Positions 44,401 to 47,400 of a DNA stretch of 64,000 bases are shown piece by piece. Origin of the DNA: Escherichia coli. GTDB lineage: Bacteria; Pseudomonadota; Gammaproteobacteria; Enterobacterales; Enterobacteriaceae. Position 1 is the stretch's first letter. Each line of letters starts with the position of its first letter. Location: the NCBI RefSeq assembly GCF_045037415.1, contig NZ_CP173438.1; one strand, 5' to 3'. A program made the position numbers.

Positions 44401-47400
44401 AGATCCAGAGCCAGCTCGACAGTATGGTTAACGGCGAGCAATCGCAGATTGTGAGCTTAAGAGCGCAACTTACTGAAGCAAAATATAACCTTGAGCAGAC
44501 CGTCATTCGCGCACCGAGCAATGGCTACGTCACTCAGGTACTGATCCGCCCAGGTACATACGCCGCTGCCTTGCCGCTGCGTCCGGTGATGGTCTTCATC
44601 CCCGAGCAAAAACGGCAAATTGTCGCCCAATTTCGGCAAAACTCGCTGTTACGTCTGAAACCCGGCGATGATGCGGAAGTGGTGTTTAACGCGCTACCTG
44701 GGCAGGTGTTTCACGGCAAACTGACCAGTATTTTACCTGTCGTGCCAGGCGGTTCTTATCAGGCGCAGGGGGTATTGCAATCATTAACGGTCGTGCCCGG
44801 CACGGACGGTGTGCTGGGAACCATTGAGCTGGACCCTAACGCTGATATCGATGCCTTACCCGACGGCATCTACGCCCAGGTGGCAGTTTACTCCGACCAT
44901 TTCAGCCATGTTTCGGTGATGCGGAAAGTGCTGCTAAGAATGACCAGTTGGATGCATTATCTTTATTTGGATCATTGAGACTTGTATCACCTGTGTTTTG
45001 CGCGAGCCTGAGCCATACTGATATTTTTCCTCGCACAAAGGACTCGGCATGAAACTCGTCGGTAGCTACACCAGCCCGTTTGTACGCAAACTTTCTATTC
45101 TGTTGTTAGAAAAGGGCATAACGTTCGAATTTATTAATGAACTGCCCTATAACGCGGACAACGGCGTGGCGCAATTTAACCCGTTAGGAAAAGTGCCGGT
45201 GCTGGTGACCGAAGAGGGCGAATGCTGGTTTGATTCGCCGATCATCGCTGAATATATTGAATTAATGAATGTTGCTCCGGCGATGTTGCCGCGTGATCCG
45301 CTGGAGTCGTTGCGGGTGCGCAAAATTGAGGCGCTGGCGGATGGCATTATGGATGCCGGGCTGGTATCGGTGCGTGAACAGGCGCGTCCGGCGGCGCAGC
45401 AGTCTGAAGATGAATTGTTACGTCAGCGTGAGAAAATCAACCGCAGTCTGGATGTGCTGGAAGGATATCTGGTCGATGGCACGCTCAAAACCGATACGGT
45501 CAATCTGGCGACTATCGCCATTGCCTGTGCGGTCGGATATCTCAATTTCCGCCGCGTTGCGCCAGGCTGGTGTGTCGACCGCCCACACTTAGTCAAACTG
45601 GTCGAAAACCTGTTTAGCCGCGAAAGTTTTGCTCGCACCGAACCGCCAAAGGCTTGATGCGCGATATGTCCTCCTGACCCATCTCACGTTACAATCCGTG
45701 GTTATGTTAAACGCCCTTCTCCGTGTGAGAGGGCCTTGATCAGCCAGGTTTCCTATGACAACCGAAACGCGTTCCCTCTATAGTCAACTTCCGGCTATTG
45801 ATCGCTTATTGCGCGATAGCTCCTTCCTTTCTTTGCGTGATACTTATGGTCACACCCGCGTGGTGGAATTGCTGCGTCAGATGCTTGACGAAGCGCGAGA
45901 AGTGATTCGTGACAGCCAGACGCTGCCCGCGTGGTGTGAAAACTGGGCGCAAGAAGTCGATGCCCGGTTGACGAAAGAGGCGCAAAGCGCGCTGCGTCCG
46001 GTGATCAACCTGACGGGAACCGTGCTGCATACCAACCTTGGGCGAGCTTTACAGGCGGAAGCCGCGGTGGAAGCCGTTACGAAGGCTATGCGTTCGCCAG
46101 TGACCCTCGAGTACGATCTGGACGACGCCGGACGTGGACATCGCGATCGGGCGCTGGCGCAGCTGCTGTGCCGTATTACGGGGGCGGAAGATGCCTGTAT
46201 CGTTAATAACAATGCGGCGGCGGTGTTATTGATGTTGGCGGCCACTGCCAGCGGGAAAGAGGTGGTGGTTTCTCGCGGCGAACTGGTGGAGATTGGCGGC
46301 GCGTTTCGTATTCCCGATGTTATGCGTCAGGCAGGATGCACCCTACACGAAGTAGGGACCACCAACCGCACGCACGCGAATGATTATCGTCAGGCGGTGA
46401 ATGAAAATACCGCACTGTTGATGAAAGTACATACCAGTAACTACAGCATTCAGGGGTTCACCAAAGCGATAGATGAAGCGGAACTGGTGGCGCTCGGCAA
46501 AGAACTGGATGTTCCAGTGGTGACTGATTTAGGCAGTGGCTCGCTGGTCGATCTTAGCCAGTACGGTTTGCCGAAAGAGCCAATGCCGCAGGAGTTGATT
46601 GCGGCGGGCGTCAGTCTGGTGAGCTTCTCCGGCGACAAGCTGTTAGGCGGGCCGCAGGCAGGAATTATTGTTGGTAAAAAAGAAATGATCGCCCGCCTGC
46701 AAAGCCACCCGCTGAAGCGTGCATTACGCGCGGATAAAATGACCCTCGCGGCGCTGGAAGCCACGTTGCGTCTTTATTTACACCCTGAAGCTCTGAGTGA
46801 AAAATTACCGACCCTGCGCCTGCTTACCCGCAGCGCAGAGGTCATTCAAATCCAGGCACAACGTTTACAGGCTCTCCTTGCCGCACATTACGGCGCGGAG
46901 TTTGCGGTACAGGTTATGCCATGTCTTTCGCAGATCGGCAGTGGTTCGCTGCCGGTTGATCGCCTGCCGAGCGCGGCATTAACGTTTACCCCCCATGATG
47001 GACGCGGTAGCCACCTTGAGTCATTAGCCGCCCGCTGGCGTGAATTGCCAGTGCCGGTGATTGGTCGTATTTATGACGGACGATTGTGGCTGGATTTACG
47101 CTGCCTTGAAGATGAGCAACGGTTTTTGGAGATGTTGTTGAAATGATTATTACGACTGCCGGACACGTTGACCACGGCAAAACAACCTTGTTGCAGGCGA
47201 TTACGGGCGTAAATGCCGACCGTCTGCCGGAAGAAAAAAAGCGCGGCATGACCATCGATCTCGGCTATGCCTACTGGCCGCAGCCGGATGGTCGCGTGCC
47301 TGGTTTTATCGACGTACCCGGTCATGAAAAGTTTCTTTCCAACATGCTGGCGGGCGTTGGTGGTATCGATCACGCGCTGTTGGTGGTGGCGTGCGATGAC

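Follow-up and report, generated by a model that had tools for sequence, protein, structure and literature searches.

The locus described here has its closest counterpart in the RhsA locus of E. coli K-12, a polymorphic toxin locus. In the genome of strain MG1655 (NC_000913.3), 8287 bp separate yibF from yibH and contain rhsA, yibA, the pseudogene yibJ, yibG, yibS, yibW, yibV and yibU. The GC content of this segment is 57–64% in the core and 31–39% in the distal part, which is the classic composition of Rhs elements. Strains without the element are also on record: Feulner et al., in 1990, reportedly found 8249 bp in K-12 in the place of 32 bp in a Rhs-less strain, and the laboratory of C. W. 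Hill (Feulner et al. 1990; Hill et al. 1995) is said to have worked on Rhs-free alleles in E. coli lacking the RhsA-B-C-F subfamily. Our independent computation also gave 8249 versus 32 bp, and the DNA examined here is a further instance of these empty-site alleles, found in an ST131-like genome.

The site between yibF and yibH is listed as rhs locus 10 by Jackson et al. 2009 (PMC2935791), who inferred that it arose after the split from a pathogenic group without the clade I rhs expansion. Like this locus in K-12, the one reported here lies between yibH and yibF at the same chromosomal position, and its flanks match those of K-12 at 98% identity as far as the breakpoints, but it is devoid of the rhsA core, of yibA and of the orphan tips, and holds instead 32 bp of what is very probably ancestral spacer. 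The empty yibH-yibF junction is real but ordinary, being a strain polymorphism already published (Jackson et al. 2009, PMC2935791), and since the presence or absence of rhs at yibF/yibH has been catalogued since the 1990s and by the same authors, it tells nothing new on Rhs biology. The added value of the present analysis lies in an outgroup-based case for the ancestral emptiness of the site and in the current allele frequencies in 5426 complete genomes.

Gene Order at the yibH-yibF Junction

The stretch of E. coli DNA that was analysed, hereafter called the window, is 64,000 nucleotides long. The features used in the following are:

mtlA, 41027..42940, minus strand: from the ORF list, identity confirmed unambiguously by family scan
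yibI, 43477..43839, plus strand: DUF3302 protein of 120 aa, first gene of the yibI-yibH pair (ORF and SK1144 annotation)
yibH, 43842..44978, plus strand: protein of the HlyD/membrane-fusion-protein family, 378 aa; its TGA stop ends at 44978
yibH-yibF spacer, 44979..45048, plus strand: 70 bp, Rhs-free, the unoccupied allele of the RhsA insertion site
32-bp segment ACTTGTATCACCTGTGTTTTGCGCGAGCCTGA, 44980..45011, plus strand: present in the window and absent from K-12, which has the 8249-bp Rhs element instead
37-bp segment shared with K-12, 45012..45048, plus strand: identical in K-12, directly upstream of yibF
yibF, 45049..45657, plus strand: glutathione S-transferase-like protein, 202 aa
selA, 45755..47146, plus strand: downstream of yibF on the same strand, TIGR00474 at 633.6 bits
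selB, 47143..48987, plus strand: downstream of selA (SK1144 annotation)

These assignments agree with the RefSeq annotation of the identical genome of strain SK1144, in which yibI, yibH, yibF, selA and selB have the same coordinates. In the family scan the product of the yibH ORF matched periplasmic adaptor families of the membrane-fusion/HlyD type, and the yibF ORF aligned along its entire length with the NCBIfam equivalog NF007682 (glutathione S-transferase), scoring 407.7 bits. The arrangement is common to related genomes: yibI precedes yibH in nearly all related loci, and the order yibH-yibF-selA is conserved in the outgroups. An earlier note on this DNA, made from the sequence, had reported that only 70 bp lie between yibH and yibF, and the ORF coordinates give exactly this length (44979–45048), with no ORF in the ORF list between the two genes.

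Comparison with K-12 and Search for Rhs Remnants

The earlier note had also placed an Rhs block between yibH and yibF in K-12, so that finding the two genes adjacent in the reference would have spoken against an empty site. In MG1655 they are not adjacent, the Rhs block being between them. As for what is missing from the window, the note had listed rhsA, yibA, yibJ and yibG; their absence was correctly recognised, but the list was incomplete, as yibS, yibW, yibV and yibU are gone too.

When the junction was aligned to K-12, the window showed 98% nucleotide identity up to position 44979, one nucleotide past the yibH TGA, as seen by BLAST and by inspection, and the homology restarted at 45012, 37 nt before the ATG of yibF. 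The interval between the two breakpoints thus measures 32 bp in the window (44980–45011) and 8249 bp in K-12, and, in the spread sample, the empty-site genomes that were listed have the same breakpoint (query position 108). The two alleles are not a clean insertion/empty pair, because 32 bp stand against the 8249 bp. The ends of the K-12 element showed neither a target-site duplication nor terminal inverted repeats, and no integrase or tRNA gene is annotated near the site in K-12 or in SK1144. With no duplication, integrase or tRNA, and with 32 bp replaced rather than duplicated, the locus does not have the features of a site-specific integration (att) site. As candidate transposon-like ends we considered a 10-nt AT-rich direct repeat, TTTATTTGGA, the only one found, with one copy at the 3' end of yibH, 17 nt inside the boundary there, and the other 54 nt inside the right end; it was rejected as a probable chance match, having no wider homology by eye.

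Residual Rhs core or vestigial fragments in the junction would also have argued against an empty site. They were sought by blastn (word size 7) of the complete 8249-bp element of K-12 against the whole 64-kb window, and by tblastn of K-12 RhsA, YibA, YibG and YibV against the same window. Neither of these sensitive searches revealed any remnant in the junction: no significant DNA or protein similarity to Rhs was found there or in the 64-kb window, where only chance-level AT-rich matches appeared elsewhere, and the RhsA core gave no tblastn match at E <= 1 in the whole window. The best blastn match, 41 nt at 83% identity in the selB-yiaY spacer, turned out on inspection to be plain AT-rich sequence. 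In agreement with this, the parts of an RhsA-type composite, namely a YD-repeat core of about 1400 aa, a toxic tip, an immunity-type ORF and orphan tips, are not present in the window.

Ancestral State of the Site

To place the two alleles in a wider frame, YibH was compared with one genome per species (GTDB representatives), and 80 loci were returned. Among the loci containing yibF, this gene lies directly downstream of yibH, after a spacer of 60–100 bp, in about 55 Enterobacteriaceae species, including E. whittamii, Escherichia sp. E1V33 and members of Citrobacter, Kluyvera, Enterobacter, Lelliottia, Leclercia, Raoultella, the Klebsiella oxytoca group, Trabulsiella and Yokenella; the E. albertii contig ends inside yibH and gives no information on the spacer. 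A spacer of exactly 70 bp is found also in E. whittamii, in Escherichia sp. E1V33 and in four Citrobacter species. The counterparts of the window's 32-mer in E. whittamii and Escherichia sp. E1V33 differ from it by 2–4 substitutions, and in Citrobacter its homology can still be recognised.

Since the 32 bp are orthologous to the spacers of other Escherichia and of Citrobacter, the site appears to be ancestrally empty and not a deletion scar. The flanks are contiguous, the homology with K-12 ends at the boundaries of the element and the spacer has orthologues in the outgroups, as expected of an unoccupied allele. On these sequence comparisons we suggest, with a probability of roughly 0.9, that the 70-bp spacer is the ancestral, never-occupied allele of the site that holds RhsA in K-12, from which nothing would have been deleted. 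The interpretation of the junction as an empty site, advanced in the earlier note, is therefore strengthened by the orthology of the 32 bp. The polarity of the change, a gain in the K-12 lineage rather than a loss in the present one, is suggested by the outgroup comparison together with the inference of Jackson et al. 2009 and with the strain labels.

The ground state of Enterobacteriaceae would thus be yibI-yibH-yibF-selA-selB with a short spacer. In an E. coli sub-lineage, an 8.2-kb Rhs composite, in which the GC-rich rhsA core and its toxic tip are joined by yibA as an immunity-type ORF and by AT-rich orphan tips and ORFs, would have replaced 32 bp of this spacer. The site carries this element today in K-12 and in the majority of E. 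coli of phylogroups A and B1 and of the O157 type. The window strain has probably kept the original spacer because the ST131-like (B2) lineage branched before, or outside, the acquisition of the Rhs element.

Anatomy of the Spacer

The 32-bp segment carries a decayed 3' arm (CACCTGTG, then TTTT) of the ancestral yibH terminator hairpin. The complete hairpin, GGCAGGTG...CACCTGCCTTTT, is still found, followed by a T-run, in the spacers of about 91 bp that occur in Citrobacter and other genera; this hairpin folds with −36.4 kcal/mol (z = −4.35 versus shuffles) and, with its T-run, is evidently the terminator of yibH. Only the 3' arm is left in the 70-bp Escherichia spacer, the 5' arm having been lost, and the fold of this spacer is no better than that of shuffled sequences (z = +0.17). 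Moreover, consensus scans found no terminator and no consensus sigma-70 promoter in the 70-bp junction, which matched no Rfam family at E <= 1 and contained no local repeats or inverted repeats.

The 37-bp segment shared with K-12 contains a motif conserved across genera, GCCATACT / CCTGAGCCATACT, with CATACT at 45014–45019, followed by a T-rich stretch and then by the Shine-Dalgarno sequence AAGGA (45038–45042). The left edge of GCCATACT coincides exactly with the K-12 breakpoint. Among the alleles that were read, empty as well as occupied and from different genera, a motif of the CCATACT type adjoins yibF, and in E. coli MRY15-131 it has the form TCATACT. CATACT could be a −10 element and part of a yibF promoter, even if the consensus scan found no sigma-70 promoter there.

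As the 5' arm of the terminator is gone from the 70-bp spacer and no other terminator is seen there, read-through into yibF is possible; yibF, and possibly selAB, may be reached in this way from yibIH in the strains with the empty site. A second route to yibF would be any start dependent on the conserved CATACT element, which lies 30 nt before the ATG. In strains of the K-12 type, the linkage between yibIH and yibF would be broken by 8.2 kb of oppositely oriented genes. A genomic SELEX paper that names yibF together with rhsA deals with a peak inside rhsA and is irrelevant to the junction.

It could be asked whether the 70-bp spacer has a function of its own, be it as small RNA, attachment site or regulatory structure, and we consider this unlikely. 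The conservation of CCTGAGCCATACT across genera and the position of all the cargo found, in E. coli and in four other genera, upstream of this motif would suggest a constrained promoter and a preferred target region. On the other hand, the missing Rfam match, the fold indistinguishable from shuffles and the lack of repeats and inverted repeats argue against such a role, as do the absence of an integrase or tRNA nearby and the free variation of the 32-bp part between genera.

Other Cargo at the Same Spacer

Insertions have recurred at the yibH-yibF spacer in several genera, which makes it a hotspot. Citrobacter youngae ATCC 29220 has an Rhs element at this spacer, with a core of 1373 aa in the same orientation as in K-12 and 71% nucleotide identity between this core and the K-12 element. 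In Pseudocitrobacter faecalis the spacer is occupied by a pair of genes for VgrG and a LysM-domain protein, while Citrobacter sp. MGH106 and Klebsiella spallanzanii carry a cluster coding for a PTS-EIICB, a sulfatase, a radical-SAM maturase and an epimerase. In E. coli MRY15-131 a 12.25-kb island is found, with a chaperone-usher fimbrial operon, an autotransporter peptidase of the S6 family and regulators. All this other cargo sits upstream of the CCATACT-type motif, so that these islands share with the K-12 locus the target between the yibH stop and the motif, which is occupied in them and unoccupied in the window; their content is unrelated to the K-12 element, except for the Rhs core of C. 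youngae.

In MRY15-131 the whole ancestral spacer is seen upstream of yibF in a clearly diverged form, CACCTGCTTATTTG...GGTCATACTCATATTTTGTTAACAAAAAGGA, and yibH ends with TAA and not with TGA. The diverged spacer and the different stop codon suggest that the island arrived with donor flanks by homologous recombination. As for the K-12 element, the last ~25 nt at its yibF-proximal end, CTGCCCTTTTTCCCATCACCAG, are moderately similar to the 3' arm and T-run found in spacers of the Citrobacter type (z of about 3.3, reached by about 0.4% of shuffles, a value uncorrected for 10 comparisons), and they are not similar to the 32-mer of the window (z = 0.6). This likeness is suggestive only: it would be compatible with an RhsA allele imported together with a remnant of a foreign spacer, a weak indication on which we make no claim.

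Taken tentatively, and with somewhat less than even odds, the spacer could be a multi-allelic cargo hotspot across Enterobacteriaceae, whose alleles would spread by flanking recombination together with the spacer of the donor, CTGCCCTTTTTCCCATCACCAG being then a diverged foreign copy. The target would be a relic yibH terminator just upstream of the conserved, promoter-like motif of yibF, and the cargo would include weapons of the T6SS type (Rhs, VgrG with the LysM protein), adhesin and protease islands, and sugar-sulfatase clusters. If so, the replacement of 32 bp by 8249 bp would be an allelic swap and not an insertion. Given that several unrelated islands occur there in several genera, the site could serve as a small model of the exchange of non-mobile islands by flanking recombination.

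Allele Frequencies among Complete E. coli Genomes

The contiguous empty junction was found in 1521 of the 5426 complete E. coli genomes (about 28%). The 32-mer (44980–45011) occurs in 1522 of them, always in a contiguous yibH-yibF and never beside an occupied site or elsewhere. Junctions of the K-12 type were counted in 3751 genomes on the yibF side and in 3723 on the yibH side (about 69%), which, together with the counts of the 32-mer, makes the empty and K-12-type alleles essentially mutually exclusive. Neither allele was present in about 150 genomes (about 3% of the 5426), which hold for example the fimbrial/autotransporter-protease island. Many of the genomes with the identical junction are labelled O25b:H4/ST131, and other B2 strains such as UM146 are among them; the junction tests show NRG 857C and ATCC 25922 to be empty as well. 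By the same tests, the element is carried by K-12 derivatives, O157:H7, O103:H2 and O111:H8.

These counts bear on the possibility that the element was lost secondarily, that is, that an ancestor of B2/ST131 had the RhsA element and lost it; the element could have been excised precisely or, more plausibly, DNA of an empty-site donor could have replaced it through homologous recombination in yibH and yibF. In fact, Rhs repertoires are gained and lost between related strains (Jackson 2009, PMC2935791), and alleles of this site seem to move with foreign flanks, as the diverged spacer and the other yibH stop of MRY15-131 indicate. A K-12-type left junction is present also in Escherichia sp. MOD1-EC7003, so that the RhsA element is not confined to classical E. 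coli, and the sequence that we observe could in principle equally result from recombination with an empty-site donor. However, 32 bp that are orthologous to the outgroup spacer cannot come back through a deletion, and for this reason the re-import of an empty allele by recombination is the only viable route of loss. In addition, none of the 1522 genomes with the 32-mer has a partial or scarred Rhs junction beside it, the flanks are 98% identical to K-12 with no abrupt block of divergence, and a later origin of locus 10 was inferred by Jackson 2009 (PMC2935791). Secondary loss is thus quite improbable, and the ancestral, never-occupied spacer is the reading that we prefer.

An assembly artefact, in which the repeated Rhs core was collapsed or skipped and yibH falsely joined to yibF, deserves hardly any credit: multi-copy Rhs cores do often break drafts, and the MOD1-EC7003 contig (L002) in fact ends 2.3 kb past yibH inside the element, but the same contiguous junction in 1521 complete (closed) genomes shows that the adjacency is not an accident of assembly, a complete chromosome matches the window without a difference over 64 kb, and the 32 bp of the junction, absent from Rhs-bearing genomes, could not have been made by a collapse.

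Strain Placement

The whole 64,000-base window is 100% identical to E. coli SK1144 (NZ_AP018784.2, 76914–140913), and at least 99% identity over 25 kb (window 32001–57000) was found in 561 genomes, several of them labelled O25b:H4-ST131. The identity with SK1144 and these near-identical genomes bear out the proposal of the earlier note that the strain lies outside the K-12 lineage. For such a placement the junction alone is weak evidence, as about 28% of complete E. coli share the empty allele, and by itself it rules out only about 70% of E. coli. As a strain marker it is nonetheless useful, telling that the window is not from K-12, nor from a phylogroup A/B1 or O157-type strain, and it fits an ST131-like B2 genome.

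Alleles of the yibH-yibF site within Escherichia

The yibH-yibF site of E. coli MRY15-131 (NZ_AP017620.1) is occupied by an island of 12.25 kb (1747-14000 in L084, the locus of this strain), which is a third allele of the site inside E. coli. The island contains:

L084, within 1747-14000: chaperone-usher fimbrial operon, usher of the PefC/AfrB type
L084, within 1747-14000: S6-family autotransporter peptidase, 1269 aa
L084, within 1747-14000: two regulators

In this allele the yibH stop codon is TAA, and the copy of the spacer found upstream of yibF is diverged and foreign-looking. 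The strains WP2-W18-ESBL-08 and CS6L have feature names similar to those of the island.

In the K-12 locus (L001), a direct repeat of 10 nt, TTTATTTGGA, occurs in two copies, at approximately 7047-7056 and 15261-15270; one copy falls within the 3' end of yibH, 17 nt short of the left breakpoint, and the other is in the Rhs element, 54 nt inward from its yibF-proximal boundary. Chance probably explains such a repeat in AT-rich DNA; alternatively, it may have been left by the recombination that brought the K-12 element in. A left junction of the K-12 type, GGGGGAGGGGGGAGATTATGG..., was also observed in Escherichia sp. MOD1-EC7003 (L002, 11138-13426), followed by an ORF for an N-acetylmuramidase (PF11860) on the minus strand, beyond which the contig ends. 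These features point to an RhsA-type element whose distal cargo differs; the genome is classed as an Escherichia species of its own.

The site in other genera and the yibH terminator

Cargo at the same intergenic site was found in other genera (L020, 2104-10593; L070, 11138-17098; L008, 11138-18322; L053, 4196-12030). In Citrobacter youngae ATCC 29220 the cargo is an Rhs element, Pseudocitrobacter faecalis has VgrG and a LysM-domain protein, and both Citrobacter sp. MGH106 and Klebsiella spallanzanii carry a PTS-EIICB/sulfatase/radical-SAM-SPASM/aldose-epimerase cluster. The conserved CCATACT motif is located downstream of all these cargoes.

A number of genera have an ancestral spacer of about 91 bp, which holds a strong terminator hairpin (z = -4.35). 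The two spacers compared are:

L009 11138-11228: spacer of about 91 bp, Citrobacter sp. Awk 4
window 44979-45048: spacer of 70 bp

The 5' arm of the hairpin was lost in the 70-bp form, which occurs in Escherichia and in some Citrobacter, and thus no recognisable yibH terminator is left in the window.

Other genes in the window

Matches to K-12-type genomes extend over only 58% of positions 32001-57000 of the window. Further features noted in the window are:

32495-37562, minus strand: YadA-like trimeric autotransporter (1447 aa) and DUF3251 protein, between lldP and yibL
50459-51754, plus strand: Fic-family protein gene, between yiaY and aldB
53581-58002: GH127 pseudogene, MFS transporter and AraC-family regulator, between aldB and the sgb/lyx genes
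53581-55550, minus strand: the glycoside hydrolase family 127 (GH127) pseudogene, frameshifted
2728-13901: LPS core (waa) cluster, rfaQ-waaG-rfaP-rfaS-waaB-waaO-rfaJ-rfaY-waaZ-waaU plus waaL

The autotransporter is named EhaG in the annotation of related genomes, and we take it to be of the UpaG/EhaG type. Since yiaY and aldB are neighbours in K-12, only about 165 bp apart, the Fic gene is another strain-variable insertion. The GH127 gene is intact in MRY15-131. As for the waa cluster, its gene order is presumably that of a K-12-type core, in a strain that is non-K-12.
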